Source of the DNA: Xylanibacter ruminicola 23
GTDB taxonomy: Bacteria; Bacteroidota; Bacteroidia; Bacteroidales; Bacteroidaceae
Reading direction: 5' to 3'
NCBI RefSeq assembly: GCF_000025925.1
Contig: NC_014033.1
Location: forward strand, 2,520,001 to 2,552,000
Length of the DNA stretch: 32,000 nucleotides
Positions within the stretch are counted from its first letter, which is position 1, and each line of letters starts with the position of its first letter. Under the pieces are notes generated by a model. The model was not told the origin of the DNA. It saw only the letters and a program-made list of their open reading frames with translations, and ran no database searches. Below are positions 16,347 through 30,669 of this stretch, piece after piece. Made by a program: the position numbers and the translations under genes.

Positions 16347-16389
16347 TTCAGTTTAAAAATTAATAATGTTTATAAAATATATAATAAAT

Positions 16390-16450
16390 GTTCCTTTTTA
16401 AGTGGCTCTCGCAACTTCCGTGCACACAAAACACCCACTTAAAAAGGAAC
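16390..16450 (-). promoter_or_regulatory. Perfect 16-bp-stem hairpin in the rplC 5' leader (possible attenuator or r-protein autoregulatory element)
   Basis: gttcctttttaagtgg (16390-16405) pairs perfectly with ccacttaaaaaggaac (16435-16450) across a 29-nt loop. On the minus strand it ends 43 nt before the rplC ATG and is followed by an A/U-rich tract. A second small hairpin, cttcg-tttt-cgaag, lies at 16461-16474. Confidence 0.45.
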
Positions 16451-16538
16451 TTCAACTACTTCGTTTTCGAAGGCTAAGTCGCTATTTATCAGGGCATTGT
16501 TAGCTCCACGGCCAGCGCAATACTCACTTTTGCGGGTG

Positions 16539-16570
16539 CAAAGGTACAAATAATATATAATATACACAAA
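16539..16570 (-). promoter_or_regulatory. Bacteroidota sigma-A-type promoter for the rplC operon
   Basis: On the minus strand, the -7 box TACCTTTG (16546-16539) and a -33 TTTG (16570-16567) are separated by a 20-nt spacer. This implies a leader of about 185 nt. Confidence 0.55.
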
Positions 16571-16667
16571 TATTATTAAGGCTTAGTAGTAACTTTTAAG
16601 TATTTTTATACCTTACACCTCCAAAAACTAAACAATTCTGGCTTTTGGAAGCCGAGGTAAGGTATGT

Positions 16668-16749
16668 GTTGTTCAGATAATCTGCGTGTGCTGTCCAGAT
16701 AATCTCTATCAGTTGCTCAGATAATCCCTATAGGGGTATAGAGATAATC
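16668..16749. repeat. Four iteron-like direct repeats phased at 22/22/23 bp (15-bp core GyTGyyCAGATAATC)
   Basis: gttgttcagataatc (16668-82), gctgtccagataatc (16690-704), gttgctcagataatc (16712-26), ggtatagagataatc (16735-49). Confidence 0.9.
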
Positions 16750-17094
16750 CGAACGAGTGGTTCGCTACGTCTGAGCAAGGCATAAGTGCCATCCCAACAA
16801 ACTATATGCTTCTAACATTATCGCCATTAAAAACAAATTCACCACTAACTTGCTGATATTTAATACATTACATATAATATGTGATTTAGTGAATTAGATA
16901 TATATAACTTTTAGTATACAAAAAAGGAAAATGTATAACATTAATATTTTTGAATAGAAAAATGTTGCATATTATAAATGCACTAAATCACACTTTCAAT
17001 CAGATTAACAAGCCAAGTTATTGATATTCAACCACTTGCCCCATCAAAAAACCCATCTTTTTTTTATATCAAATTGATTGAACACAAAAAAAAG

Positions 17095-17134
17095 AATCCT
17101 CTTGCAACCTATTTTATAAAGTTGCAAGAGGATT
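17095..17134 (-). terminator. Intrinsic terminator ending the surface-protein operon
   Basis: A 14-bp perfect stem (aatcctcttgcaac / gttgcaagaggatt) with a 12-nt loop. On the minus strand it is followed by C plus eight T (complement of 17086-17094). Confidence 0.75.
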
Positions 17135-17194
17135 GAGGTCATATAGCAGTTATTCCATACTGTTCATGTCAGGGGCATCTATAGATGATTCTTT

Positions 17195-17338
17195 TTAACC
17201 TAACCAGTCATCGAATTCTGGTGCATCTGTTGGATCTGATGTGTCTGGAAATTTATCGCCACTACTTATCAACAATGCACCCTGATGGCGCAGTTCTATC
17301 ACCTGTACAGATGGCTTAATATATACTTTCTTTTTCAT
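17195..17338 (-). CDS. Unannotated 47-aa ORF with a basic N-terminus and a highly acidic C-terminus (below the ORF-track cut-off)
   Basis: Hand translation gives MKKKVYIKPSVQVIELRHQGALLISSGDKFPDTSDPTDAPEFDDWLG*. The ATG lies 4 nt after the stop of the 422-aa gene, and the ORF is followed about 60 nt later by the terminator at 17095-17134. Confidence 0.4.
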   Translation of the reverse strand: MKKKVYIKPSVQVIELRHQGALLISSGDKFPDTSDPTDAPEFDDWLG

Positions 17339-17342
17339 ATCC

Positions 17343-18611
17343 TTACTTAATTATAACCTTTTTACCATTATGAATATACAGTCCTTTCTGTGTGGGCTTG
17401 GCAGAGAGCTTACGTCCGCTCATGTCGTACCAACCACCAAAGTCAATCTCACCCGTCTCGGTGTCGAGTGTACCGATGGCTGTTGTGCCGCCCTGATTGT
17501 CGTCGTCATCCTGATTACCAGGTCCTACATTCGACAGTAGTCTGACTACGATGCTACTGGGCAGTTCATCTATGGTTCCACGCGTCATGCTACGAGTATT
17601 ATTGGGTGTGCTGTTCCAAATCAGATAGCAAGTCATCGGACGGATCTTGGCACCGCTCTTAGCTTTCACAAAGTCGCCCACCTCAATATCATCCTTCTGT
17701 ACTCCTGCAAATCCATAGACTCGCCCAATCTCCGCAGCGTTTGCACCGCCGGATATCCATTCCTTATATTCATACGTTCCCTTGAACGTCCAGTTACTAC
17801 CCTTATCGGCTTTCTGACAATTGCCGCCACCCTCTGTACAGAGCGCCACGCCCTCGTTAGGGATGGTGAACGTGATGCCCGTCGCTGTCGGCATAAACAG
17901 ATATGGCGTATTGGCTGTCAGCGTAGTCACGTTGTTGGTGCCGTCGCCCGGCTCCTTCATGGTGGCTACCCACTGCTCATTTTCTTTCTCTACGCCTACA
18001 AACTCATAGAACGAGCCGCCCTCGCTGCCCGTGCAGATATAATCAAATGGCAGCATTACTGTCGACGCCTTACCCACGGTGAACGTGCGGTTATACGTCA
18101 CGTCATCCACCGTTATTGCTGTCGGAATGTTGATGGTTGCCGTCGATGTTCCATCAATGGTTGCAACCTTACCGCTTTGGTCTTCAGAAGTAGTCAGGGC
18201 TCCATAGTTAGTCACCTTCGGAGTAATGGTAAACATCGCCTCCTTAGAGCCAGCATAGTTGGCCATGCCGGTGATGGTATAGGCATGGTTGCCAGAATCC
18301 TGAATTGGGCCGCTCGGAGCAGTCACGGTGTAGTCGGTATTCTCGGTCAGCACTGTCTCGCCGTCCTTCACAGTGATGACGGGTGTCAATTCGCTGCCCG
18401 TCCATGTCTGCGACGGAATGGTGACGGTGATGTCATTATTCGCCAGCAGTTTCTTCACATCTGCTGTCACCGTTACGTCGTTATCAGGCATGATGATGGT
18501 ATAGGTGCCGTCACCGTTGTCGGTCATGAGTTGTTGTGCGCGGGCTTCGGGGGCGACGATGACCAGAAGCAGCAGGAGGGCAGCGCGAAGTATATTCTTA
18601 TTATGTTTCAT
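17343..18611 (-). CDS. Secreted surface protein: signal peptide, Ig-like repeat, ~160-aa module shared with the 1007-aa neighbour, and a T9SS-like C-terminal tail
   Basis: Signal peptide MKHNKNILRAALLLLLVIVAPEARAQQ. A repeat of the type TENTDYTVTAPS...YTITGMANYAGSKEAMFTI is present. The C-terminus GWYDMSGRKLSAKPTQKGLYIHNGKKVIIK resembles Por/T9SS sorting tails. Confidence 0.75.
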   Translation of the reverse strand: MKHNKNILRAALLLLLVIVAPEARAQQLMTDNGDGTYTIIMPDNDVTVTADVKKLLANNDITVTIPSQTWTGSELTPVITVKDGETVLTENTDYTVTAPSGPIQDSGNHAYTITGMANYAGSKEAMFTITPKVTNYGALTTSEDQSGKVATIDGTSTATINIPTAITVDDVTYNRTFTVGKASTVMLPFDYICTGSEGGSFYEFVGVEKENEQWVATMKEPGDGTNNVTTLTANTPYLFMPTATGITFTIPNEGVALCTEGGGNCQKADKGSNWTFKGTYEYKEWISGGANAAEIGRVYGFAGVQKDDIEVGDFVKAKSGAKIRPMTCYLIWNSTPNNTRSMTRGTIDELPSSIVVRLLSNVGPGNQDDDDNQGGTTAIGTLDTETGEIDFGGWYDMSGRKLSAKPTQKGLYIHNGKKVIIK

Positions 18612-18662: not shown

Positions 18663-21600
18663 TTATTCTAAATAGTCTTCATAATCGGGTATCTCTTCGG
18701 GCGGGGTGGAGCGAAGGTATTTCGATTGTTCCGTGGCCTCGACGTTGGTGGCACTGTAGCCCGCCTCAAGCTCGATGACGATTGTGGAGCCCTGGCTGAG
18801 GTCCTGGCCGTTGCCGGTATAGGGCTGGCCGTCGACGCTGACTATCTTGAAATGCTCGGGCAGGGTGAGCACGAGGCCATTGTTGCCGCCAGTGCCATCG
18901 CCCGTCCACATTAGGTAGCACGACGTGGGGCGAATCTTCGCGCCGCTCTTCACTCTCACGAAGTCGCCGGCCACGACGAGTTGTTCGTCCACCTCCTTGG
19001 TCGCTCCTGCGAAGCCGTACACCTTGCCGATTTCTTCGGAGTTCTCGCTGTCGCTCCAGTAGCGAGGCTGGTAGGTGCCTTTGAAATTCCATTTGTTCCA
19101 CGAATATGTGCCATCACTGCCGTCGTACTCGGTCTGCTTGTTACCGCGTTCGTAACCCTCAGTGAAGATATCGAAGCCTTGGTAGTAGTCGTCCCCATTA
19201 GTGAAGTAGAGGAATTTAGCGTCCGCACTAGGCATGAAGAGATACGGCGTGTTGGCCTTCATCGTGGTCTCAGTCGTTTCGTTAGAGCCTTCCACGCCCA
19301 CTTCCTTCATCACGGCAATCCAGAAGTTAAATGGCACTTCCTCAATGCCTGCGAACTCGTAGAACTTTCCTTCCATAATGTTGTCATATTCACCCCGCCT
19401 GATATCGTTCTTCGTGAAGTCGAACGGCAGCATGATGGTCACGGCCTTGTCTCTGGTGAACGGACGGTTGTAACGCAGGTAATTTGTCCTCTGTTTCGTC
19501 TTGACATCCTTGATGCCGAGCGGCATGTCATCGTACTCGATGATATAGCTCTTCTCCCCGCTGTAGCTGTACGTCTCCACCAGGTCACCGTATGTCGGCG
19601 TATAGTACTTGCCGTCGAAGACCATGGTGTGGCCATAGACCTTCAGGAAGCCGTGGTCGGTCGGAGTGCCAAAGTGGGCGAAATTGTCGGGAACGTCGGC
19701 CGATTCCACAGCGGGCGAGCCTTGCTTCAGACCGCGTGTGCCGACGTAGAAGCAGTTGGTCAGTTTACCCTCACCATAGCCGTTGCTGCGGTGGAAGAAG
19801 GTGCTGTTCCTGTCGTTGTCATATCCCCACAGCAGTTCGCACATGTTGCCATTGTTGTCGTACTGGCCGTGCAGGAAGAGGCAGTCGGTGAGGTCAACAT
19901 ACGCATACTGCGACATGGCACCGACGAATCCGCCGCAGCCGTAGGTCTGATTCCAGGTGTTCGAGTTACAGATGAGTCCGTCGAACACGCAGCCCGTGAT
20001 GTGGCATTGGTTGTATTGCGAACTCAGAAGACCCACGAATCCGCCGTGCTCCGCTTCACCGTTGATGGTGCTGCTGATTTGGGTGCTGACGCGGCAGTTC
20101 TCAATGGTGAGGTTGCTGCTGGCAGAACCTACCAGACCGCCCATGTAGTGCCAAATACCGCCATCAATCTGTCCCGTTGCATGCAGGTTGCGGATGGTAG
20201 CGCCGTTAGTGATGCGGAACGGAGCGCAATTAGGCCTATCAGCGGTGTAGTTGAAAGTCAGCGTATGGCCGTCGCCGTCGAACGTTCCTTTGAACGCGTA
20301 TTTTCCGCTACCCGCCATCGTTGTCACGGTGATGTCGTCGCCCAGCACCACGGTCTTGCCACTGAAACCGTTCAAATCAGCATCGACATCCATGCGCTGA
20401 CAGAAGTAGTTCCAGCCATCGGCAGTCTTGATGGTGTAGGTGTCGCCGCTCTGAGTGATGTTGTTTTCATTCAGCGGATACGTGAACGTAGCGCTGAGGT
20501 TCACGTCCTCTGCGGGCATGTTGAACGTGTAGGTGTTTCCGCTTTGCGTGTAGGCGATGTTGTTGCCCGACGTCGCGCCCGTCAGGGTCAGTCCTTCAAG
20601 ACTCTCATCCATCTGTTGCGTGTAAGTGATGGTCATCGCTTCGCCCTCCAAAGCCGAACTCTTGCTCAGGCTGAACTGCGAGTAGGTGTTGTTGACATTG
20701 AATCCGGCCAAGATGCTGAAATTTGTGGTCAGCATGTATGGATGCTCGTTATCGCTGTTGATGATGATGGTAACGGTGACGGTGTAGTCGCCTATTAAAT
20801 TTGGTGCTGTACCACTACTTTCTGACGTAGCGTTGTTCGTGTAACTATAGGTAGTTTTAATATCGGTAATGCCCGTCTCTGCCGAGAAATCCGTCAAGTT
20901 AAGTGTGGCACTATGTCTTTGGTTGTCAAATGAAGCATCGTTGGCGGTGAGCATCAGTGTGGACTTGCGACTCGTGCCGAGGTTGCAATTGTGGTATTGG
21001 CTGGTCTGATTGCACGTGGCGGTCAGTGTATTGCCGCTGGCACTGAACGTAAACGTATGTCCGGGGTCGGAAGTATCCTCCACCTCAACATCGTAGGTAA
21101 TGGCAATAATGCCATCCTTAAAACTGAAGTCTCCTGAAGCGTCATCTCTTGCGCTGGAAAACATTATTTTCAATGGATTCGGAGCGCTGACAGCCACACT
21201 GCCCTCAAAAGTTGCGGAATTAGAATAATCATAGTTGTTGTTCGACGGGAAATCGTAGTCGTTGGTGGTTCCTTGCAGATGCAGCAATGTTGAAGTGTTG
21301 TTCTTATCAAGGCCAATGTACATTTGCATATCACTATCGTAGAACCTGAAATTAGTGAGTACCACGCTTTTCACGGTTCCTTCTAAGTTAGGAAACTCAA
21401 TGACACCTCCGCACTCAATTACACTGGCACGAAAGGTTGTAGTTTTTTTATTGGGTCTACAGTAGATATTATTGTTTGACGGGTCATTGTTAGACCAATG
21501 CAAGGTCTTTCCACTGCTTACCAACGTCCAGTCGTCTTGCACCGACGTATTACCCGATGCGCCGCCGTCCATATAGAACGTCACGGTTCTTGTCTCCGTC

Positions 21601-21686
21601 ACAGCCCACGCCGTCTGCGCCATCGTGAGCATCGCGGCGAGGGTGAGGATGAGGATGAGATTGAATTTCTGTCTTGTCGTTCTCAT
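18663..21686 (-). CDS. Large secreted GLUG-motif protein (putative adhesin / IgA-protease-like surface protein), no T9SS-like tail
   Basis: 1007 aa with signal peptide ...LTLAAMLTMAQTAWA. GLUG-type repeats are GGLVGSASSNLTIENC, HGGFVGLLSSQYNQCHITGC and GCGGFVGAMSQYAYVDLTDC. The C-terminal module (18906-19472) is paralogous to 17610-18098. Confidence 0.8.
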   Translation of the reverse strand: MRTTRQKFNLILILTLAAMLTMAQTAWAVTETRTVTFYMDGGASGNTSVQDDWTLVSSGKTLHWSNNDPSNNNIYCRPNKKTTTFRASVIECGGVIEFPNLEGTVKSVVLTNFRFYDSDMQMYIGLDKNNTSTLLHLQGTTNDYDFPSNNNYDYSNSATFEGSVAVSAPNPLKIMFSSARDDASGDFSFKDGIIAITYDVEVEDTSDPGHTFTFSASGNTLTATCNQTSQYHNCNLGTSRKSTLMLTANDASFDNQRHSATLNLTDFSAETGITDIKTTYSYTNNATSESSGTAPNLIGDYTVTVTIIINSDNEHPYMLTTNFSILAGFNVNNTYSQFSLSKSSALEGEAMTITYTQQMDESLEGLTLTGATSGNNIAYTQSGNTYTFNMPAEDVNLSATFTYPLNENNITQSGDTYTIKTADGWNYFCQRMDVDADLNGFSGKTVVLGDDITVTTMAGSGKYAFKGTFDGDGHTLTFNYTADRPNCAPFRITNGATIRNLHATGQIDGGIWHYMGGLVGSASSNLTIENCRVSTQISSTINGEAEHGGFVGLLSSQYNQCHITGCVFDGLICNSNTWNQTYGCGGFVGAMSQYAYVDLTDCLFLHGQYDNNGNMCELLWGYDNDRNSTFFHRSNGYGEGKLTNCFYVGTRGLKQGSPAVESADVPDNFAHFGTPTDHGFLKVYGHTMVFDGKYYTPTYGDLVETYSYSGEKSYIIEYDDMPLGIKDVKTKQRTNYLRYNRPFTRDKAVTIMLPFDFTKNDIRRGEYDNIMEGKFYEFAGIEEVPFNFWIAVMKEVGVEGSNETTETTMKANTPYLFMPSADAKFLYFTNGDDYYQGFDIFTEGYERGNKQTEYDGSDGTYSWNKWNFKGTYQPRYWSDSENSEEIGKVYGFAGATKEVDEQLVVAGDFVRVKSGAKIRPTSCYLMWTGDGTGGNNGLVLTLPEHFKIVSVDGQPYTGNGQDLSQGSTIVIELEAGYSATNVEATEQSKYLRSTPPEEIPDYEDYLE

Positions 21687-22289: not shown

Positions 22290-22577
22290 TTATGGTTTAA
22301 CTTTATTTGTCTCGTGGGGTATAAAACACAGCGGCTTGCCCTGCATTCGTGCAGAGCAAGCCGTATATCGCCATTGCGCGCCGACACAAGTGTCGTCGCT
22401 CAATGTATTTTTAGCCTCTATAGAAGTATAGTGAGTGAGTGAGTGAGTGAGTGAGTGAGTGAGTGAGTGAGTGAGTGAGTGAGTGAGTGAGTGAGTGAGT
22501 GAGTGAGTTAACGAATTATTTGACATGGCCAAACAATTCGCGTTAAACATTGTTACAAACACGCATTTACACATCAT
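22290..22577 (-). CDS. Leader ORF that reads through the (TCAC)n microsatellite; probably regulatory rather than a functional protein
   Basis: Tandem ATGs at 22577/22574 lie about 40 nt downstream of the -7 box. The (SLTH)n stretch is encoded by the repeat. The stop lies 13 nt before the lipoprotein ATG. The other two frames stop within about 20 nt of the repeat. Confidence 0.25.
   Translation of the reverse strand: MMCKCVFVTMFNANCLAMSNNSLTHSLTHSLTHSLTHSLTHSLTHSLTHYTSIEAKNTLSDDTCVGAQWRYTACSARMQGKPLCFIPHETNKVKP
22333..22362 (-). terminator. GC-rich hairpin (terminator/attenuator candidate) inside the leader ORF
   Basis: The minus-strand RNA reads GGCUUGCUCUGCA-CGAA-UGCAGGGCAAGCC, a 13-bp stem including one G-U pair. 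That pair would be a C-A mismatch on the plus strand. The hairpin is followed by GCUGUGUUUUAU. Confidence 0.45.
22430..22508. repeat. Perfect tetranucleotide microsatellite, (AGTG)/(TCAC) about 19.75 units
   Basis: 79 nt of uninterrupted gtga repeats, read directly from the sequence. Confidence 0.99.
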
Positions 22578-22617: not shown

Positions 22618-22625
22618 CAAAGGTA
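22618..22625 (-). promoter_or_regulatory. -7 box TACCTTTG (minus strand) upstream of the microsatellite leader and surface-protein operon
   Basis: Plus-strand caaaggta in an AT-rich intergenic region. The -33 element is not obvious. Confidence 0.4.
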
Positions 22626-22703: not shown

Positions 22704-22832
22704 TCAGGTATTGTTTACACAATCCGCTATCATACGCACAGAAATGTTCACATCTGTTTTCATCTCCTCAGGGCGAGAAATAGCATAATGACAATTAGGA
22801 CATTGTATCTGTTTTTCCAAATATGCGCACAT
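22704..22832 (-). CDS. Unannotated 42-aa Cys-containing ORF abutting the ABC-exporter stop codon
   Basis: Hand translation gives MCAYLEKQIQCPNCHYAISRPEEMKTDVNISVRMIADCVNNT*. The ATG directly follows the exporter TGA (TGAATG). It contains a CPNC motif plus Cys2 and Cys38. Confidence 0.3.
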   Translation of the reverse strand: MCAYLEKQIQCPNCHYAISRPEEMKTDVNISVRMIADCVNNT

Positions 22833-24449
22833 TCAGCTGTGGCTGGCAAATTGTTTTTTTTCATTTTCTATCAATACTATATCATCACATAGTTCGCAGA
22901 CTGTCGACCTATGTGTTATGAAGATCATAGTTTTCTGAGGTAAAGCTGTAAATATCCGGTGGTACAGATCTTTTTCAGTAGATTCGTCGAGCGAGCTGCT
23001 TATCTCGTCGAGCAGCAGTATGTCGCCATCATGCAGCAAGCCACGGGCAATGGCTATGCGCTGGGCCTGCCCCTCGCTCAGGCCGCAGCCACGTTCACCC
23101 AGTTCGGTATCAAGACCATCCTCCAGATCGAACACAAAGTCGGCACAGGCGGTATGCAGCACCTGGCGCAACTCGTCGTCGGTAGCCGTGGGCTTGGCCA
23201 ACTGCAGATTGTAGCGGATGGTGCCGCTCATCAGGGTGTTGCCCTGCGGCACGTAACAGATGTTACCACCTACCTCTACCCGTCCGCTGGTGGGCTGGAT
23301 AAAGCCGAGTATCAAGCGGAACAGGGTGGTTTTACCAATACCCGTCTGCCCCATGATAGCCGTCTTGGTGCCAGGGGCAAACTGGTGCGTAAAATGCTGT
23401 AATATCTCGCTGTCGCCATTGGCATAGCGGAAGCTCACGTCATCAAGCCTTACCATTTTATTTGGCACGGAGTTACACGGATTATCACGGATTTCTTTTT
23501 TGTCCTGAACAGACAGTTCCTCTAACCTATCGATACTGGCGGTGCAGTGTATCACCGTGGGCACCATGTTAAGCAGTTGCAGAATGGGGTGCTGAATCAT
23601 ACCTACCAGCTGCAGGAACGAGGTCATGACACCAAAGGTGATGGTGCCATTACGCAAAGAAATGCCACCCCATACGAATGCCAACAGATAGCCCAGGCCG
23701 AACACACAGCCCATCACAATCCTCATGGCCACGGTGAACCGCATTCGACGCATCACATTGCCTTTCAATCGCTGCTGCATCGACTCCAAACGATCGGTAA
23801 CCCACTGCTCTGAGCCCAGCGAGCGCAGCACGGCATTGTGCTCCATGCTCTCTTGCACCTGCATCTGTATGCGACTCTCGTCTTCGCGGATATCGAGCGT
23901 CATCTTACGCAAACGGCGGGATATCAGCTTACCAAACACAATGGCCATAGGCGTGAGCAACAGCAATGCCCAGGCCAGACGAGCGTCGAACCAACGCATG
24001 AGCAGGAAAGCACCACACAGCTGTATAAAGGTGATGGCTATCTGGGGGATGGTGTCGGTACACACGCTGCTAATGGTCTCGATGTCCTTGACCAGTCGCG
24101 AGGTAACATCGCCCGAGTGCAGCTCTTGTTCGGTATATAGCTGACGGCGGAACAGACTGCTGAAGATACGCAGGCGCAGGGCATTGGATTGATGTACGCC
24201 TGCCGTAGTGGTGAGCCAGTAGCCCACCTGACGGAGTGCCACGCCACCCAATACGGTGAGTACCAACAGTAGCACCATACGCAGCACATCGTCGGCCGTG
24301 CCTGTACGGATGGTTTCGTCGATGAACTTACGACTGAGCCATACCATCAGCAGGCCAAGTGCCACCTGACCGATACCCGTCACGATACGCACCACCGTAT
24401 TAAAGCGGATACCACGCGAGTGATGCCATAGCCACGCGATGTAGTTCAT
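22833..24449 (-). CDS. ABC exporter, fused permease + ATPase (type-1 exporter fold, no peptidase domain)
   Basis: 538 aa with an N-terminal six-helix membrane domain. Motifs are Walker A GQTGIGKTT, signature LSEGQAQR, Walker B ILLLDE and H-loop ITHR. Confidence 0.9.
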   Translation of the reverse strand: MNYIAWLWHHSRGIRFNTVVRIVTGIGQVALGLLMVWLSRKFIDETIRTGTADDVLRMVLLLVLTVLGGVALRQVGYWLTTTAGVHQSNALRLRIFSSLFRRQLYTEQELHSGDVTSRLVKDIETISSVCTDTIPQIAITFIQLCGAFLLMRWFDARLAWALLLLTPMAIVFGKLISRRLRKMTLDIREDESRIQMQVQESMEHNAVLRSLGSEQWVTDRLESMQQRLKGNVMRRMRFTVAMRIVMGCVFGLGYLLAFVWGGISLRNGTITFGVMTSFLQLVGMIQHPILQLLNMVPTVIHCTASIDRLEELSVQDKKEIRDNPCNSVPNKMVRLDDVSFRYANGDSEILQHFTHQFAPGTKTAIMGQTGIGKTTLFRLILGFIQPTSGRVEVGGNICYVPQGNTLMSGTIRYNLQLAKPTATDDELRQVLHTACADFVFDLEDGLDTELGERGCGLSEGQAQRIAIARGLLHDGDILLLDEISSSLDESTEKDLYHRIFTALPQKTMIFITHRSTVCELCDDIVLIENEKKQFASHS

Positions 24450-24462
24450 ATTTTTTTAGGCA

Positions 24463-24489
24463 CGAATTACGCGAATTACACGAATTTAT
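24463..24489. repeat. 3 x 9-bp tandem repeat in the PqqD-like/ABC intergenic region
   Basis: cgaattacg cgaattaca cgaatttat. The last unit contains the PqqD-like gene stop codon (24486-24488). Confidence 0.8.
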
Positions 24490-24755
24490 TCCACCACACC
24501 AACGTTTTGCCATTCGTCGAGGATGGCAGCCACATCGGTTTTGGCCTCATCGACTGAAACTTCGTATTCGTCGCAGAGTTTCTGGGCGAGGGTGTCGATG
24601 GTGAAACCGTCCATAGCCACAGCCTGCTGCCACAGCCAGGCGGCTGTCTCGTTCAGCGCCAGCATCTTACCAAAGTTAATGGCGCCAAGGCCCTCGCCTA
24701 CTATCACATTCTCGCCGCACACCTGGCGCAGCACAAATCCCTTTTTTATCTTCAT
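24486..24755 (-). CDS. PqqD-family protein (putative RiPP recognition element / peptide chaperone)
   Basis: 89 aa. KKGFVLRQVCGENVIV...ALNETAAWLWQ...TIDTLAQKLCDEYEVSVDEAKTDVAAILDEWQNVGVV follows the PqqD-like pattern. Confidence 0.8.
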   Translation of the reverse strand: MKIKKGFVLRQVCGENVIVGEGLGAINFGKMLALNETAAWLWQQAVAMDGFTIDTLAQKLCDEYEVSVDEAKTDVAAILDEWQNVGVVE

Positions 24756-24811
24756 GTTTAATGTTTAATCTTTAATGTTTAATGTTTAATCTTTAATCTT
24801 TAATGTTCAAT
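24756..24811. repeat. 8 x 7-bp tandem repeat (S)TTTAAT, also readable as 2 x 21-bp perfect units plus two more heptamers (ctttaat, gttcaat)
   Basis: gtttaat gtttaat ctttaat gtttaat gtttaat ctttaat ctttaat gttcaat. It fills the whole gap between the peptidase stop (24793) and the PqqD-like start (24755). Confidence 0.95.
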
Positions 24812-25230
24812 CTCCTAAGTATGGCCAGCAAGTACCGGCGGATGGGGCGCAGATGCCACCACAGGCGGGCAGCACGACAGCGCCACGGGGTGTACAGATC
24901 GTGCATCTGCTCGTTAGCACCCACCACATGGGTAGCCACAGCCTTTACATCCTGCAGCGTACAACGCTCGGTGCCTACCAGATTGCCGTCGCCCATCAAT
25001 ATGACGTTACGGCCATCAAAAAGTATAATCCTGTGCACCACATATCTGCTATTATCAACCCAAGCCAGCACCACATCGCCAACCTTCAGCTTATCGGGCT
25101 TCTGTAGAACCACACTCTCCTTACCACCGATGATAAACGGCAGCATGCTGTGGCCATTCACGGGCAGTGTCACGCTCACTCCTTCCCTCACCAGCCGGAT
25201 GGCTTCCTCTATGATCTCATGATCCGTCAC
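24793..25230 (-). CDS. S24/S26-family serine peptidase, soluble (no N-terminal membrane anchor), GTG start
   Basis: 145 aa with VNGHSMLPFI (GxSMxP Ser box), GDVVLAW, YVVHRII and LMGDGN. The start codon is GTG at 25230, and there is no in-frame ATG before the Ser box. Confidence 0.75.
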   Translation of the reverse strand: MTDHEIIEEAIRLVREGVSVTLPVNGHSMLPFIIGGKESVVLQKPDKLKVGDVVLAWVDNSRYVVHRIILFDGRNVILMGDGNLVGTERCTLQDVKAVATHVVGANEQMHDLYTPWRCRAARLWWHLRPIRRYLLAILRRLNIKD

Positions 25231-25251
25231 AATTATTTCATTTTTACATTA

Positions 25252-26106
25252 TTACATTTTTACATTGCTCCAGCACAACCGTGCTGCGGCCTCGTCGGGC
25301 AGACACTCCAGGTGCCACATGGGCACTTGCATGGCCAGGTTGTTCTCGGTGGCATGCAGACCATCGGCTATACGTGCGTCCCAGCGCTTGCCACTGATGC
25401 TGGGCACCAGGGCTGCATAGGCCTGCAGTCCGCCTAATGGCTGTATCTTATTGTAAGGCGCCTGACTGAGCATCACGATACCCCCCAAGGGATAGCGCAC
25501 GTTACGATAGCAGGGTGTTTTGCCGCTCCAGGGCGAGCCGAAGACCGTAGCCGCGCCATCCGCACCAATACGTACCACGGGATTATCATCGTTAACCAGT
25601 TCGGTGCCATCGATATACTGTAGCCACAGGCGGGCATGTGTACTCTTACCCGTGCCGCTGGGGCCCAGGAACATATAGCCCTTATCCTGATAGCTCACGA
25701 TAGCCGCATGGAACAGCGCCGTGCACTTATCGGCCGTTACCAGGGCAAACATAATCATCAAGGCGTTATCGATAGCCATTTTTACGTGATGGGCAGTCAT
25801 TATCAGTCGGCCCTCACTATAGTCGGCCTTGCAAACCAGCCAACCGGCATTTACGCCAAACCAACCAAACTGGAACACCATCTGACCAGTAGCGGTATGA
25901 CCGCAGATAATGATCTGTTCATTATCTTCCTGTCGCAGTTCCTCGGTATAGGCGGGTGCATCGCCGCTGGTAATATCCAAGGTAAACAGCACGTCGCCTT
26001 CGGCACAGGCAAACGGCTCATAGTTGGTCATGAGCGATAAACAAGCCTCATCGCCACGCACGCAGAACCGATGTTCTGCCACTTCATAATATCTGGTTAT
26101 ACACAT
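25252..26106 (-). CDS. HPr-kinase-like P-loop protein (HprK-related kinase)
   Basis: Walker A FLGPSGTGKSTHARLW followed by ELVNDDNPVV and GSPWSGK. I prefer the ATG at 26106 (MCITRYYEVAEHRF..., 284 aa, 10-nt overlap with the upstream gene) over the track's GTG at 26196. Confidence 0.75.
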   Translation of the reverse strand: MCITRYYEVAEHRFCVRGDEACLSLMTNYEPFACAEGDVLFTLDITSGDAPAYTEELRQEDNEQIIICGHTATGQMVFQFGWFGVNAGWLVCKADYSEGRLIMTAHHVKMAIDNALMIMFALVTADKCTALFHAAIVSYQDKGYMFLGPSGTGKSTHARLWLQYIDGTELVNDDNPVVRIGADGAATVFGSPWSGKTPCYRNVRYPLGGIVMLSQAPYNKIQPLGGLQAYAALVPSISGKRWDARIADGLHATENNLAMQVPMWHLECLPDEAAARLCWSNVKM

Positions 26107-27194
26107 TCCGGATAGTCTCTTAATGATATACTTCTGAGTCGAATACGTATGTGCAACGTACGCACGATACGTTTCCAATAGAACAGCTCTTGCCACAGTA
26201 TCTCGGAGGCGTTAAACCGCATCAGCTGCAATCGGCGACGTTTGCTCTGTGCAACCCTGCGCCACACCCCCAGCTGTGTGCGTTTGGCATAACGTCCGAA
26301 GTTGCCACCAGCCATGATTTCGCGCAGCATCCACTCGCCACGATAGCTACCTGGTTTACAAAGCATCTGTTCCTTTGGCAGGTGCAGCACCTCAGCCAGC
26401 ACCCACATCAGGGCACCTGCCGCATGAAGCAAGCCCAAACGACGTAACTGAGCACTCACACACTGCCTGTCGTCGTCGGTAGCATTCTGCAGCAGCCAAT
26501 AATAATCGCACACCTGGCGCAGCCCTACCCCTTCGCCTAAGAAATGGCGCTGTATGTGTGCCAACTGCATGACCAGGGCGAACCTTACCGATGGTACATA
26601 AAAACCTTCGGGCGAAAGCTCGGTATGCTGTATCTCTTGCTCCAGCCATTGCTGCAAGCGGCGATTGGTGATAGGACTGAAATGGCCCGATGACGGACGG
26701 AAATGTATCTCAACCTCAACCCCTTTCTCGTTCTTGGGCAGATGGGCATGGTGGTACGCTACAATAGCCTCGCCATCAATGAGTGCCAACACACTCTCAC
26801 GACCGCCCTCTACCCAGATATCGATATCGCCAGGCTGGCGGGCATATTTTTCGGGATAGAGGCGCGCGTTGGCCTGACCTTTCAGTATCGCCGTCTGGCG
26901 CCCTTTCTCTGAAAACTCCCGTGTGAGTCTGGCCGCCTCCTGATAGAGCAGTTCGTTCAGTCCCTTTATCGTCTCGGCCTCGCAAGTCCACTGCATAGCT
27001 ATATCTACAGGTAGCTGTTGCTTACCCGACAACTGGCAAACGCCTTGGTAGCAAACGCCTACGAGCGACTGGCGCACAGCCATCTGATACAGCCATCGCC
27101 AGTCATCGGCATTCACGCCATCAGGAAACTCCTGCGACAGTCCTAACGACAGGCGCAGCAGCTGATAGAATAGTTCGTTATCGCGTAGAATCAT
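26097..27194 (-). CDS. Nucleotidyltransferase-family protein (uncharacterised NTase, PF14907-like)
   Basis: 365 aa with an ATG start. ...RQPGDIDIWVEGG... is the NTase-fold acidic motif. The architecture resembles the NTases found beside PqqD/HprK-like genes. Confidence 0.7.
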   Translation of the reverse strand: MILRDNELFYQLLRLSLGLSQEFPDGVNADDWRWLYQMAVRQSLVGVCYQGVCQLSGKQQLPVDIAMQWTCEAETIKGLNELLYQEAARLTREFSEKGRQTAILKGQANARLYPEKYARQPGDIDIWVEGGRESVLALIDGEAIVAYHHAHLPKNEKGVEVEIHFRPSSGHFSPITNRRLQQWLEQEIQHTELSPEGFYVPSVRFALVMQLAHIQRHFLGEGVGLRQVCDYYWLLQNATDDDRQCVSAQLRRLGLLHAAGALMWVLAEVLHLPKEQMLCKPGSYRGEWMLREIMAGGNFGRYAKRTQLGVWRRVAQSKRRRLQLMRFNASEILWQELFYWKRIVRTLHIRIRLRSISLRDYPECV

Positions 27195-27228
27195 ACTTCA
27201 ATGTTAAAGCAACATGGCGTTTGCGCCG

Positions 27229-27236
27229 CAAAGGTA
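27229..27236 (-). promoter_or_regulatory. -7 box TACCTTTG (minus strand) upstream of the nucleotidyltransferase gene
   Basis: Plus-strand caaaggta in the 83-nt gap between the OM-barrel stop (27278) and the NTase ATG (27194). Confidence 0.4.
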
Positions 27237-27277: not shown

Positions 27278-29782
27278 TTACAATGAGAACTCGGCGGAGA
27301 GGATGAGTTCGCGGGGACGGAGGAGGTAGCTGGTGGTTGAGGTGGCGATACCAGTGTAGATGGTCTCCTCGTAGGCTTGCTTGTTGAACAGGTTGTTGAG
27401 AGCGGCCTTCAGGCGGACAGTCTTCAATCGCCAGGTTACCGAGGCATCGCTGAGCAGGGTGTTCAGGGTGTTGCCGGCTTGCAGCTCGTTGCGGTGATGC
27501 ACAAACTTCCAAGAGAGATCAACCTTGCCGATAGTGGAAGTGAGCACCAGCTGCTGGCGCCAATTGAACAGCGTGGTATGCGAACTGCCAGCCGTTTTGT
27601 TGCCATTGAGCGAGAAACTGGCACTGTAGTCGAACTCGCACCAATCGGGCGACACGATGATACCCGGCGTAAGCGTAAGCGACTGGGTGGTATAACTGTA
27701 CCACTCACCTGCCGACAGCTGGCGACCTTTGCTTAACGAGCCATTCACACCCAGGCTCAACTTGGTCTTGATGGCATAGAAGCCTTTCTGTATGCTGGCA
27801 CCGCCACTCAGAAAGTCGTTCTGACTGTGGAGTTCCTTCAGGGTGTAGTAATAGCAGCCATCGATAATCTGCATATCGTTGGTGGTGTTGTTCCAACTGC
27901 GCTGCACCGTGAGGTTGACAGTGGCAAAAAGCTCACGGATAGGACGTTTGTACCGATAGCCCAACGTGGCATAAACCTGACGGTTGACAGGTATCAAGTC
28001 GGCTGCTTTGTACCACGTGCGATAATCACGGCGATAACTGTCGAGAGCATAGTTCTGCATACCACCCATTGTTTGTACGTAGGCACTACCGAGATGAATT
28101 TCGGAACGGGTATCAGGATTCCAATAAGCAGAGAGCACGGGATGCAGATAGAACATAGACTGCTGCTGACGCACGTAACGCTGGAAAGTAAGCGTGGGCG
28201 ATAGCGAGAGCGTGAATTTATCGGTGCGATACTGCCAGCGGGGACGCGCCTCGATGATGAGGTGCAGGTTATCGGTGTGGTTTACATACACATCCTCGCC
28301 CTCGACAAACAGGTTGTAGGTATGTGTTATCTTACCAGCCTTACGCTGCCAGCCCAGCAGGTGGGCGGTATGCCAGAGGTTGGTGCGCAGGCGATTTCGA
28401 TCGGCATCGAGATAGAGGTCGCCCACACTATGATGGTAGTCGAGGACAGATTTCCAGGTGAGCTGTGCCCCACTCTTTAACGAATACATACGATACAGCG
28501 AGCCCTCGAGAGCGAGCTGCGGCACACGGATGCGCTGCAAAGGTTCATTAGTGCCGAATAGAGACAGACCGTCGCCCTGCGTAGCACCGATGCTGAGCAT
28601 CTCGTTGCCATAGGCTTTTTCGGTATTCACCTTACGCTCTACCTCAGCCGAGAAGTTATCGGTGATAATGGTCTTCTGCTGCTGTTCGGTGGTAATGGTG
28701 GGTGCCTCGCCATCAAGATAGTAGGCCGTACGGTTCTCGGTGGATTGTCGTACCACACTACGGTCGTACTGGGCAGCCACGCGCAGTTCGCCATCATTCT
28801 TTGTTTTCCTGACGCTGTTGATGCCATAGCGCTGCGAGGTATTGAAACGCAGGCGCTCCTCGTCGAGTGGTGCCGAGAGCGATGGCACACTGTACCACGA
28901 GGGGATGTGACCACCATCGAGACGATTGTAATTACCACCCAGAATCTGATACGACTCACTGAGGTCGATGCCCTTGCGGTCGTAGGCCACATCGTACATC
29001 AGCTGTTTCTTCTTACCTATCTGTCGGATATTGGCCGTACCGCCCACATGCGTGGGATCGCCTACCAACAAGTAGGGTATCAGCGTGGCCATCAACCGAT
29101 CGCGAGCCTCGTCCTTCAGGGTAACGTTCATACCCACATCTTCGGTATAAACCTTATCACGCAAGGCCTTGATAGGCTGGTCGTGCTCTACAATCTCAGC
29201 TTTCTCCACATCCTTGGCACGGATATTCTCTGTGAGCTGGTTATAACGGCCACCCGTGAGATCGAGTCCTTCGACGGTGAAGCGCTTTACCTGTTGGTTA
29301 TTATAGTATATCTTGCCGTTCGATGCCACATCCACGCCTGGCAGTTTTTTCAGCACATCCTTCAGAGAGTTGTCGCGGTCGCTGGTAAAACGCGTCAGGT
29401 CGAAGGTGATAGTGTCGCGGCCCGTGATACGACTGCCCTGTACCTTTACCTCTTTCAAGGCGAAGGCCTCGGATGGCAATGAGAGTACAACAGGCTTGTT
29501 GGCGTTTTTCATGGGCACGCCACGCCTGCGTTTGCCAAAGCCGAGCATGGTGGCCTGCACCTGGTCGCCCATGGCAACCTGATCGACCGTGATGGCAAAC
29601 TCGCCATCAGCATTGGTCCGGGCAAACTTAACGGTCTTACCCTTACGCAGGTACATCACACTGGCACTGACCAACCGCTCGTGGGTGGCAGAATCCTCGA
29701 CTACGCCATGCACCGTTACCTGTGCAGAGGCGCCAAGCGCCTGCATCAGCAACAGCATCAACAGAATGACACCGTTTTTCAC
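27278..29782 (-). CDS. TonB-dependent-receptor-like outer-membrane beta-barrel (CarboxypepD_reg-like N-domain + plug)
   Basis: 834 aa with a GTG start overlapping the upstream stop (GTGA). The signal peptide ends ...ALGASAQ. VTVHGVVEDSATHERLVSASV...TNADGEFAI is CarboxypepD_reg-like, and LKDVLKKLPGVDV...G is plug-like. The remainder is a long beta-strand-rich C-terminal region. Confidence 0.8.
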   Translation of the reverse strand: MKNGVILLMLLLMQALGASAQVTVHGVVEDSATHERLVSASVMYLRKGKTVKFARTNADGEFAITVDQVAMGDQVQATMLGFGKRRRGVPMKNANKPVVLSLPSEAFALKEVKVQGSRITGRDTITFDLTRFTSDRDNSLKDVLKKLPGVDVASNGKIYYNNQQVKRFTVEGLDLTGGRYNQLTENIRAKDVEKAEIVEHDQPIKALRDKVYTEDVGMNVTLKDEARDRLMATLIPYLLVGDPTHVGGTANIRQIGKKKQLMYDVAYDRKGIDLSESYQILGGNYNRLDGGHIPSWYSVPSLSAPLDEERLRFNTSQRYGINSVRKTKNDGELRVAAQYDRSVVRQSTENRTAYYLDGEAPTITTEQQQKTIITDNFSAEVERKVNTEKAYGNEMLSIGATQGDGLSLFGTNEPLQRIRVPQLALEGSLYRMYSLKSGAQLTWKSVLDYHHSVGDLYLDADRNRLRTNLWHTAHLLGWQRKAGKITHTYNLFVEGEDVYVNHTDNLHLIIEARPRWQYRTDKFTLSLSPTLTFQRYVRQQQSMFYLHPVLSAYWNPDTRSEIHLGSAYVQTMGGMQNYALDSYRRDYRTWYKAADLIPVNRQVYATLGYRYKRPIRELFATVNLTVQRSWNNTTNDMQIIDGCYYYTLKELHSQNDFLSGGASIQKGFYAIKTKLSLGVNGSLSKGRQLSAGEWYSYTTQSLTLTPGIIVSPDWCEFDYSASFSLNGNKTAGSSHTTLFNWRQQLVLTSTIGKVDLSWKFVHHRNELQAGNTLNTLLSDASVTWRLKTVRLKAALNNLFNKQAYEETIYTGIATSTTSYLLRPRELILSAEFSL

Positions 29783-30669
29783 TGCAGCTCAATGAGATTA
29801 AACTTGGGGCGATCAATCTTATCGAGTTTCGAGCCGTCGGAGTTCATGATCACAATCTTAGCCCCAGTGCCCGCCATCTGTTTGAGCACATCGTTCGGAT
29901 CGTAGCTCTCCTTCAAACGTCGGAAGTCTTTCTGACTCACTTTCTCACGTTTCGCCTTGATGAGGGTAATAGGTTCGCCCTCGGGCTGCTCCATGCCCTG
30001 TCCGTCAAAGATGAACTGACGACTGCTATCATAGGCCCTCAGAATGAGACCTGGCAGACCGCGCAGTTTCCACGGTCCCTCGTCGAGGGGGATATCCTCG
30101 GTGTACCAGGCATACCACTGGCGGCCCTTGAAATGGGTGGTAGCCAACTGACAGGTATAACCCATGATATCAGCCGTAGAATCGGGCAGTACGGTCCATT
30201 CGGGTGTTTCCATCTTCTCCTCAATCTGACACTTTGCCTCACCCGCCACATCTAACATCAAGGTTTTACCTTTCTCTGGATAGTTCTTATAGAACTCCAT
30301 CGACAGGATACCAGCCTTGGGCAAGTCTCTCAGGTCAAAATCCCCCTTTTCTATCTTCTCACGCATCAACTTCATGCGAACCGCAGCCGAATAGCTGTAG
30401 AACTTCGACACGCCATCGGCACTGATATCAAGACGCATCTCATCGTCGCGATATTTATAAGGTTTGGTAAGCGTATCGTTAACCGCCTTAGATTGATAGG
30501 TGATACGATAGGTTGTATTAGCAACTGCCAATGTATCGTTCTTACCCTTCTTCTTAGCCTCCTTGGCTGGCATTTTCATCTGGCTCTTATCAATCACCAT
30601 GCCACCAATCTGCTGTGCCTGCGCCATCATACTGAAAGCCAGCAGGACAGAAATCATGAATATTCTCAT
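29779..30669 (-). CDS. GLPGLI-family protein
   Basis: 296 aa with signal peptide MRIFMISVLLAFSMMAQAQ. It contains the name-giving motif: WKLRGLPGLILRAYD. Confidence 0.85.
   Translation of the reverse strand: MRIFMISVLLAFSMMAQAQQIGGMVIDKSQMKMPAKEAKKKGKNDTLAVANTTYRITYQSKAVNDTLTKPYKYRDDEMRLDISADGVSKFYSYSAAVRMKLMREKIEKGDFDLRDLPKAGILSMEFYKNYPEKGKTLMLDVAGEAKCQIEEKMETPEWTVLPDSTADIMGYTCQLATTHFKGRQWYAWYTEDIPLDEGPWKLRGLPGLILRAYDSSRQFIFDGQGMEQPEGEPITLIKAKREKVSQKDFRRLKESYDPNDVLKQMAGTGAKIVIMNSDGSKLDKIDRPKFNLIELQ

Follow-up and report, generated by a model that had tools for sequence, protein, structure and literature searches.

The closest described relatives of the gene cassette considered here belong to the linear polyphosphorylated peptide (LPP) pathway of Bacillota, which was published in May 2026 by Popov et al. 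(Nat Commun 2026;17:6633; PMC13381572). The cassette lies in a stretch of 32,000 nucleotides from the rumen bacterium Xylanibacter (Prevotella) ruminicola 23 (contig NC_014033.1, positions 2,520,001 to 2,552,000), referred to as a whole as the window, and encodes a nucleotidyltransferase (NTase), a kinase-like enzyme, a peptidase, a recognition element for peptides that are ribosomally synthesized and then modified post-translationally (RiPPs), and an ATP-binding cassette (ABC) exporter. The LPP reference cluster is lppA-K-B-S-D-N of Paenibacillus alginolyticus DSM5050, and expression of the P. alginolyticus genes in Bacillus subtilis showed that LppK adds one to four phosphates to Ser3 of the core peptide (PMC13381572). 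LppS, with the residues S29, H68 and D93, cleaves after T-1 and requires the RiPP recognition element (RRE) LppB, and deletion of the NTase in the heterologous host caused no change (PMC13381572). A crystal structure of LppB with the leader showed that D70 and N33 fix the leader Tyr and the Pro kink; the precursor leader motif is YxxPxVLxHQxIxFETxxS and the phosphorylated Ser3 is located 18 residues past the Tyr (PMC13381572).

The models that define LPP clusters in the supplementary table of that study are TIGR02228, PqqD, NTP_transf_5, TIGR02203/4 and a kinase of either TIGR04249 (67 hits) or TIGR04352 (65 hits) (PMC13381572). NTP_transf_5 is near-universal in the Bacillota clusters, and the TIGR04249/ScmC-type kinase is found in half of them, apparently including the P. 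alginolyticus locus (PMC13381572). The LPP clusters of Bacilli are located in capsule loci, the authors describe LPPs as 'restricted to the Bacillota', and according to them the final product and its function are still unknown (PMC13381572). Clusters 4/9 of their sequence similarity network (SSN), which include Dehalobacter, Anaerocolumna and Ruminococcus, are listed, and only cluster 1 was studied (PMC13381572).

The X. ruminicola cassette is probably an operon that directs biosynthesis of an LPP-type peptide, made on ribosomes and then modified. A first-pass annotation of this DNA had proposed a linear peptide of an undescribed class, produced and exported by the cassette after leader cleavage, phosphorylation and possibly glycosylation, without a lasso cyclase. 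Such a product has been demonstrated experimentally for the same five-gene set in P. alginolyticus and is predicted here by homology, and the class can no longer be called undescribed since the pathway has been published for Bacillota (PMC13381572).

The cassette and its five proteins

The cassette is a minus-strand operon of five tightly packed genes, and the positions read from the window sequence match those given earlier. A putative Bacteroidetes-type -7 promoter box, TACCTTTG (27229..27236, minus strand), fits the TAnnTTTG consensus and is located 35 nt 5' of the first ATG. The genes that follow, all on the minus strand, encode an LppN-like NTP_transf_5 nucleotidyltransferase of 365 aa (26097..27194), an LppK-like, ScmC-family P-loop kinase-like enzyme of 284 aa with an ATG start (25252..26106), an LppS-like, soluble Ser-His-Asp protease of 145 aa that resembles archaeal and endoplasmic reticulum (ER)-type signal peptidases and has a GTG start (24793..25230), a discrete LppB-like RRE of 89 aa with the PqqD fold (24486..24755), and an LppD-like, MsbA-like half-size ABC exporter of 538 aa without a peptidase domain (22833..24449). 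The NTase and kinase genes overlap by 10 nt (26097-26106) and the later spacers are 21, 37 and 36 nt. The co-directional arrangement, the promoter box and these distances had been described exactly in the first-pass annotation, and all the motifs quoted there are present in the translations. A public X. ruminicola genome (GCA_019973335.1) has identical gene calls for the cassette. Short tandem repeats fill most of all three intergenic spacers (25232-25266, 24754-24811 and 24461-24486); these are (ATTATTAC) x 4.4, (ATGTTTA) x 8.3 from the peptidase stop to the RRE start, and (CACGAATTA) x 2.9.

The left border of the cassette had been placed at 22704 by a 42-aa open reading frame (ORF) at 22832..22704, which has a CxxC motif and abuts the stop codon of the exporter gene. 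This ORF is not conserved in 83 related loci, matches no family and is not called in GCA_019973335.1. It was rejected as a precursor on these grounds and is probably not a gene.

Strong family matches were obtained for the NTase (PF14907, 2.6e-51), the RRE (PF05402, 7.8e-14) and the exporter, which matches ABC_membrane (1.5e-30) and ABC_tran (8.9e-21) in Pfam and TIGR02203 (3e-61) and TIGR02204 (1.4e-63) in NCBIfam. The matches of the peptidase to PF00717 (1.6e-4) and TIGR02228 (2.3e-5), and of the kinase to TIGR04249 (ScmC; 8.3e-5) and TIGR04355 (1.3e-4), are weak and fall under the curated cut-offs. Two other families that had been named for the kinase, PF07475 and TIGR04352, gave no match to it in hidden Markov model searches, and TIGR04353 reached 19.8 bits, below its cut-off of 35. 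The weak matches of the kinase and peptidase are confirmed by other means, namely public annotation, fold and a peptidase family profile. In the public gene calls the same kinase is annotated as Pfam PF27840 'ScmC'. Defence models of PADLOC gave generic ABC-ATPase matches only.

Searches of the PDB by sequence were uninformative, with no matches for the peptidase and NTase and only P-loop-level matches for the kinase profile (PEPCK 0.026, HprK/P 0.85), and the assignment of the kinase was therefore taken to a fold search. The AlphaFold2 model of the kinase has a pLDDT of 88.9, and its top PDB matches in Foldseek are PEPCK, which it matches in both domains (E=2.4e-8), and HprK/P 1jb1, matched in the catalytic domain (2.4e-5). 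Homologues show no variation in the Walker A motif GPSGTGKST or in the NDDN motif. The kinase is assigned to the ScmC family and not to PF07475 or to the TIGR04352 'HPr-rel-A' system, to which it had been related earlier.

Ser-His-Asp residues are characteristic of archaeal/ER-type signal peptidases, and a Ser-Lys pair of LexA or bacterial signal peptidase I. The peptidase of the cassette has the motifs GxSMxP (Ser), VVHRI (His) and MGDG (Asp). Among 74 homologues, GxSMxP and HR[IV] are retained in all and MGDG in 71, and the spacing from Ser to His is 38 residues in the window-type peptidase and 39 in LppS. The residues expected to hold the leader are conserved in the RRE, where Asn35 is retained in 73/73 homologues and Asp74 in 72/73; by hand alignment they match N33 and D70 of LppB, the residues that hold YxxP.

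The window proteins match the models that define LPP clusters (TIGR02228, PF05402, TIGR04249, PF14907 and TIGR02203/4). Profiles built from the 74 peptidase and 73 RRE homologues were compared with the sequences of Supplementary Data 1 of PMC13381572. The peptidase profile matches the peptidases of SSN clusters 4/9 at 1.7e-28 (cluster 4) to 1.2e-20 and LppS at 8.4e-13. The RRE profile matches the 'RRE others' of the same clusters at 3.6e-26 to 4.9e-21 and LppB at 1.3e-5. Because both proteins are closer to SSN clusters 4/9, the cassette is best filed as a variant of the LPP kind that lies outside the published clade, probably in a sister clade of Bacteroidota and Fibrobacterota. A separate group in the same data set, SSN cluster 8, contains sequences from Paludibacter and a Porphyromonadaceae metagenome-assembled genome (MAG) in which a SipW-like peptidase is apparently fused to the N-terminus of an ABC-transporter-like membrane protein. 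These fusions are 743-747 aa long, the sequences as stored being incomplete, and have an adjacent RRE (PMC13381572); they would be a serine-peptidase analogue of the C39-ABC bacteriocin exporters.

Proteins like the kinase are widespread. Clustered at 90% identity, the ScmC-like protein gives at least 8,000 clusters, and in a scan that took one genome for each species at least 595 species genomes encode a relative; the best 80 of these are mostly Prevotella, other Bacteroidales and Fibrobacter, with a few MAGs labelled Oscillospirales. Synteny, which had been proposed as a check on homologous cassettes, was found for a core of four genes. ScmC, peptidase, RRE and ABC exporter occur together in 62 of the 84 loci compared, mostly in that order, and the exporter is syntenic in 66; 27 loci have an NTase and 16 have the full set of five. 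The composition of the cassette is not fixed, and the NTase is an accessory gene. All-against-all clustering of every ORF of at least 30 aa across the related loci found no further conserved family except shadow ORFs and one family of small peptides, and no gene family besides the core genes and surface proteins is common to more than 7/84 loci.

Candidate precursor peptides

The cassette had been described as having no precursor. The family of small peptides found by the clustering, extended by six-frame profile searches of the 84 loci, accompanies the cassette and has a YxxP leader; conserved small ORFs near homologous cassettes, which the first-pass annotation had suggested looking for, are thus present. 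The copy in the window (17195..17338, minus strand), outside the coordinates of the earlier description, encodes a candidate precursor of 47 aa, MKKKVYIKPSVQVIELRHQGALLISSGDKFPDTSDPTDAPEFDDWLG. At the presumed cut site it divides into a leader, MKKKVYIKPSVQVIELRHQGALL, and a core, ISSGDKFPDTSDPTDAPEFDDWLG, and it has a YxxPxV leader motif and the invariant Ser26. An annotated X. ruminicola protein, listed as hypothetical, is 100% identical to it. The gene is located 5.5 kb downstream of the cassette, directly behind a surface-protein gene, and its product is likely to be the precursor that the cassette modifies.

The consensus of the family is MKKxYxKPx[M/L]xVVx[L/I]...LLxGS, followed by an acidic variable core. 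K3, Y6 and P9 show little or no variation, and this pattern is [Y/W]xxPx[L/V/I], the motif recognized by the RREs of lasso and LPP pathways. A Ser is found 19 to 21 residues past the Tyr in 37/39 unique peptides, and no other residue outside the leader is conserved. The presumed cores, counted from two residues before this Ser, are 13-35 residues long and hypervariable, with 23% D+E and 2% K+R, and have no position-conserved Asp/Glu. Close relatives of the window peptide end alike, in P[D/E][F/Y]DD[W/L][L/F]G. A lasso-like ring was considered and rejected, since no Asp/Glu is found at a fixed distance from the conserved Ser.

Of the 84 loci, 26 contain the peptide, with 35 copies in all by the six-frame profile search. 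At 17 loci the first cassette gene has a copy on the same strand no more than 1.5 kb upstream. Among 1.84 billion representative proteins, a profile search gave 3,731 representative clusters of the family; among the matches listed, all peptides are short and most match from the first few residues. When the search was started from seven peptides instead, a cassette was found within 10 kb in four of them, one of which has only PqqD and ScmC. The peptides match no family in Pfam or NCBIfam, and clustering of ORFs of at least 30 aa found no other conserved small ORF that accompanies the cassette. In a profile comparison with the published LPP precursors only 10 columns (KKxYxxPxV) align, with an hhalign E=0.002 and a probability of 14%. 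Homology of the precursors is not claimed because this comparison aligned the RRE motif alone; what the sequences do indicate is a recognition motif shared with the LPP precursors, and not homology of the whole leader.

The YxxPx[L/V] motif of the leader is of the lasso type, and a HprK-like kinase, an NTP_transf_5 enzyme, a PqqD RRE and an ABC exporter are typical of paeninodin-type lasso clusters. It could be proposed from these features that the cassette works in trans, for tailoring and export, in a lasso pathway whose cyclase and B2 protease are encoded elsewhere in the genome. We regard this as very improbable. Pfam-annotated gene calls and scans found no Asn-synthetase-like cyclase and no transglutaminase-like B2 protease in the window from about 7,200 to 32,000, and neither is conserved in the 84 loci; the earlier statement that no lasso cyclase or radical SAM gene is present holds for the cassette and for genes conserved in related loci. 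The absence of further gene families shared by more than seven of the loci argues in the same direction. The cassette has a dedicated Ser-His-Asp leader peptidase in place of B2, as in LPP, and the leaders are without the penultimate Thr. Cyclase linkage has moreover been found in only a third of the Bacillota SpI clusters (PMC13381572).

A different question is whether the ScmC enzyme carries out the chemistry known from LppK. The pathway could act on the peptides and the enzyme catalyze another reaction, such as the activation of Asp/Glu carboxylates for cyclization or some other transfer of a phosphoryl or nucleotidyl group, in which case the product would not be an LPP. The closer resemblance of the fold to both domains of PEPCK than to HprK/P would fit such a reaction, as would scores far under the TIGR04249 and TIGR04355 cut-offs and cores that are very rich in Asp/Glu, unlike the Gly/Pro/Asn/Lys-rich cores of Bacillota. 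The peptidase and RRE also belong to a clade that was not characterised in the LPP paper. However, half of the published LPP clusters have a TIGR04249/ScmC-type kinase (PMC13381572). The single Ser at a fixed distance from YxxP, the sole conserved residue outside the leader, is as in LPP, and the cores have no Asp/Glu of conserved position. Another chemistry is therefore considered unlikely, and phosphorylation of the conserved Ser is the preferred reading.

Surface proteins and neighbouring DNA

The gene directly upstream of the window peptide encodes a secreted surface protein of 422 aa (17343..18611, minus strand). Its stop codon is separated from the ATG of the precursor by 4 nt (TAAggatATG), and its C-terminal module of about 290 aa ends in the tail WYDMSGRKLSAKPTQKGLYIHNGKKVIIK. 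This arrangement is general. In 39 of 42 cases one peptide gene, or two or three in succession, is found 4-300 nt past a large ORF (288-1,928 aa) with the tail or the module, and a large ORF is directly upstream in all seven cases when the search is started from peptides, the tail having been checked in four of these loci. The tail has the consensus ...WYDLxGRKLxGKPTxKGLYIxNGKKVVIK, and the module of about 290 residues is common to many of the large proteins. Their N-terminal parts are variable and include Flg_new, LRR_5, MBG_2, Cna_B and beta-helix regions. A paralogous surface protein of 1007 aa in the window (18663..21686, minus strand) has 42% identity over 230 aa to the 422-aa protein by tblastn; it is without the tail and no peptide gene follows it.

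The surface-protein gene is the tightest neighbour of the peptide, both in the 39/42 cases and in the 7/7 found from the peptides, and only about a third to half of cases have the cassette adjacent. Some Fibrobacter loci are without an RRE. It might be argued from this that the peptides are not substrates at all, that they belong functionally only to the surface-protein genes and that the cassette has another substrate. This is improbable, as the peptides bear the exact motif that is read by PqqD-type RREs and the RRE retains the residues that read it. Peptides are also found directly before the first cassette gene in 17 loci, one locus has only a peptide, PqqD and ScmC, and no other conserved small ORF goes with the cassette. 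There is no support for the earlier alternative that the cassette modifies a protein substrate; the neighbouring large proteins have Sec signal peptides and the RRE-binding motif sits in the small peptides.

The 422-aa protein and its module match no Pfam or NCBIfam family. The AlphaFold2 model of the protein has a pLDDT of 76.7 with three short terminal strands, and its fold search gave no PDB match at E<0.001. 'Short' type IX secretion system (T9SS) signals at the C-terminus have been described in Prevotella intermedia; they consist of a cleavage motif, a motif B (Tyr, Gly, basic), a motif D GxY-Ile and a basic motif E (PMC11969387). The tail ...T/AIG...WYDLxGRKL...GLYI.NGKKVVIK fits the verbal description of these short C-terminal domains, with which it was compared by description only (PMC11969387). 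The tails gave no match to the standard T9SS C-terminal domain models TIGR04183 and PF18962. The resemblance to a short T9SS signal is offered as a lead.

What might the peptide do beside such a protein? The constant pairing of precursor and surface-protein genes points to a role at the cell envelope. It is conceivable, and we put it forward tentatively, that in the Fibrobacteres-Chlorobi-Bacteroidetes (FCB) group LPP-type peptides are dedicated partners of modular surface proteins, which are probably T9SS cargo, with each precursor gene translationally coupled to such a gene. A single shared kinase-peptidase-RRE-exporter cassette would serve for the maturation of every such peptide in a genome, and each peptide, once exported as an acidic phospho(glyco)peptide, would work with its protein at the envelope. 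It may, for example, be an acceptor or anchor for attachment, a cofactor or a cognate signal. If true, this would be the first functional context for the LPP class of RiPPs, whose role is unknown even in Bacillota.

Modular surface proteins of this kind are found at loci L002, L004, L007, L024, L036, L039, L084-L087, L090-L092 and others. Locus L092 (GCA_002353115.1, 10001-11480) is minimal and consists of a surface protein (MBG_2), a 44-aa peptide, PqqD and ScmC, with peptidase and exporter not adjacent. Six Fibrobacter loci (L031, L036, L039, L042, L046 and L087) have a surface protein, peptides and NTase-ScmC-peptidase, with no RRE or exporter within 10 kb. One Prevotella locus adjoins a glycosyltransferase-rich locus.

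In the window, the string of surface-protein and peptide genes is headed by a gene for a 182-aa lipoprotein. A second TAnnTTTG-like box is located at about 22618-22625 (minus strand), and between it and the lipoprotein gene is a perfect tetranucleotide repeat, (AGTG) x 19.8 (22430-22508; CACT on the minus strand), followed by a 14-bp hairpin (22363..22332). The repeat could be a slipped-strand phase-variation switch for the surface-protein and peptide genes. At the other end of the string, a putative terminator-like hairpin with a 16-bp stem and a T-run (17095..17134, minus strand) was found by consensus scan and in the sequence about 60 nt past the precursor stop. The region from the peptide terminator to rplC (16347-17194) is about 850 bp of AT-rich DNA (GC about 37%) without Rfam or tRNA matches, scans of the region for both having returned nothing, and there is no rpsJ directly upstream of rplC. 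The cassette and the surface-protein string are located immediately upstream of this ribosomal-protein operon. Just upstream of the cassette and on the same strand (27278-30669), the gene for an outer-membrane protein with a CarboxypepD_reg domain (834 aa) overlaps that for a GLPGLI-family protein (TIGR01200, 2.1e-49). These two proteins, a TPR protein and the 182-aa lipoprotein were considered as parts of the system and rejected, as none had a tblastn match in 83 related loci.

Predicted pathway and comparison with known systems

Gene content, synteny, fold, the conservation of residues for catalysis and for leader binding, and the peptide family with its placement come from the present analysis. 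The chemistry of the X. ruminicola pathway, the residue modified, the number of phosphates, the cut site and export may be predicted from homology with the Bacillota. The PqqD-type RRE would bind the precursor through the leader motif KKxYxxPx[M/L/V]. The ScmC-family kinase would then use ATP to phosphorylate the invariant Ser about 20 residues past the Tyr (Ser26), once or more. An RRE-guided Ser-His-Asp protease is expected to remove the leader a few residues before Ser26, and the NTP_transf_5 enzyme, where present, may add a further group to the phosphate. The MsbA-like ABC exporter would finally carry the acidic product of 13-35 residues over the inner membrane to the periplasm.

Several points weigh against this pathway. 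All the chemistry is assigned by analogy. A recognisable peptide is found within 10 kb in only 26 of the 84 cassette loci, and in the window it is 5.5 kb away with three unrelated genes between. The leader resembles that of LPP solely over KKxYxxPxV, the HQxIxFET cleavage motif being absent. The kinase scores 22 bits against TIGR04249, for which the cut-off is 125, although this is still its best NCBIfam match. The peptidase and RRE fall outside the published LPP clade and are nearest to SSN clusters 4/9, as judged from profile scores. In a subgroup of Fibrobacter, neither an RRE nor an ABC exporter occurs within 10 kb of the peptides, NTase, ScmC and peptidase, and no RRE-like insert was found in its ScmC proteins. 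As few loci hold a peptide and the window copy is distant, the pairing of peptide and cassette would be partly in trans. Several scattered precursor genes probably share one cassette; this would account for the presence of a peptide in only about a third of the cassette loci.

If an LPP-type pathway is accepted, a sister version of LPP is very common in the dominant fibre degraders of the rumen and gut. It has its own precursor type, so that targets for mass spectrometry are predictable. The capsule loci of Bacilli and the pairing with surface proteins seen here both indicate the cell envelope, and this provides a testable handle on the purpose of the peptides. Genome-mining rules that flag such loci merely as 'RRE-containing' miss a definable class. 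Literature searches on 'RRE-containing' together with Prevotella turned up survey tables only, and those on ScmC/SynChlorMet unrelated acronyms only. Of interest are how widely such cassettes occur outside Bacillota, the newly defined family of precursors and their constant pairing with surface proteins.

Three kinds of described system can be compared with the cassette. In the SynChlorMet cassette as described in TIGRFAMs, the TIGR04249 protein ScmC occurs with the radical SAM/SPASM proteins ScmE and ScmF and a PqqD homologue, and the 'HPr-rel-A' neighbourhood is that of TIGR04352/TIGR04353. The X. ruminicola cassette is similar to both in having a ScmC-family protein beside a PqqD-family protein. 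It differs from SynChlorMet in that no radical SAM gene is found in it or conserved in related loci, and from HPr-rel-A in the lack of a TIGR04352 match and a TIGR04353 score under the cut-off. The lasso clusters of the paeninodin and pseudomycoidin type in Firmicutes have a HprK-like kinase acting on a precursor Ser, an NTP_transf_5 enzyme, a B1/PqqD RRE reading [Y/W]xxPxL and an ABC exporter, all of which have counterparts here. They also have an Asn-synthetase-like cyclase and a transglutaminase-like B2 protease, for which there is no counterpart, and the leader peptidase of the X. ruminicola cassette is instead a serine enzyme with a signal-peptidase fold acting on a leader without the penultimate Thr.

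The LPP pathway of Bacillota is the third. The hosts here are Bacteroidota and Fibrobacterota, and the peptidase and RRE group with SSN clusters 4/9 and 'RRE others' and not with cluster 1. The leader is without VLxHQxIxFET, the cores are acidic whereas those of Bacillota are rich in Gly, Pro, Asn and Lys, and the NTase is optional (27/84 loci). The precursor genes are joined to surface-protein genes and are not embedded in capsule loci. On the other hand, both systems use the same five enzyme types, including an MsbA-like exporter and a discrete PqqD RRE, both are without a macrolactam cyclase, and both have a patchy distribution and a variable genomic context. In both, the known or candidate precursor has an N-terminal KKxYxxPx[V/M] motif for binding to the RRE and a conserved Ser about 18-20 residues past the Tyr.

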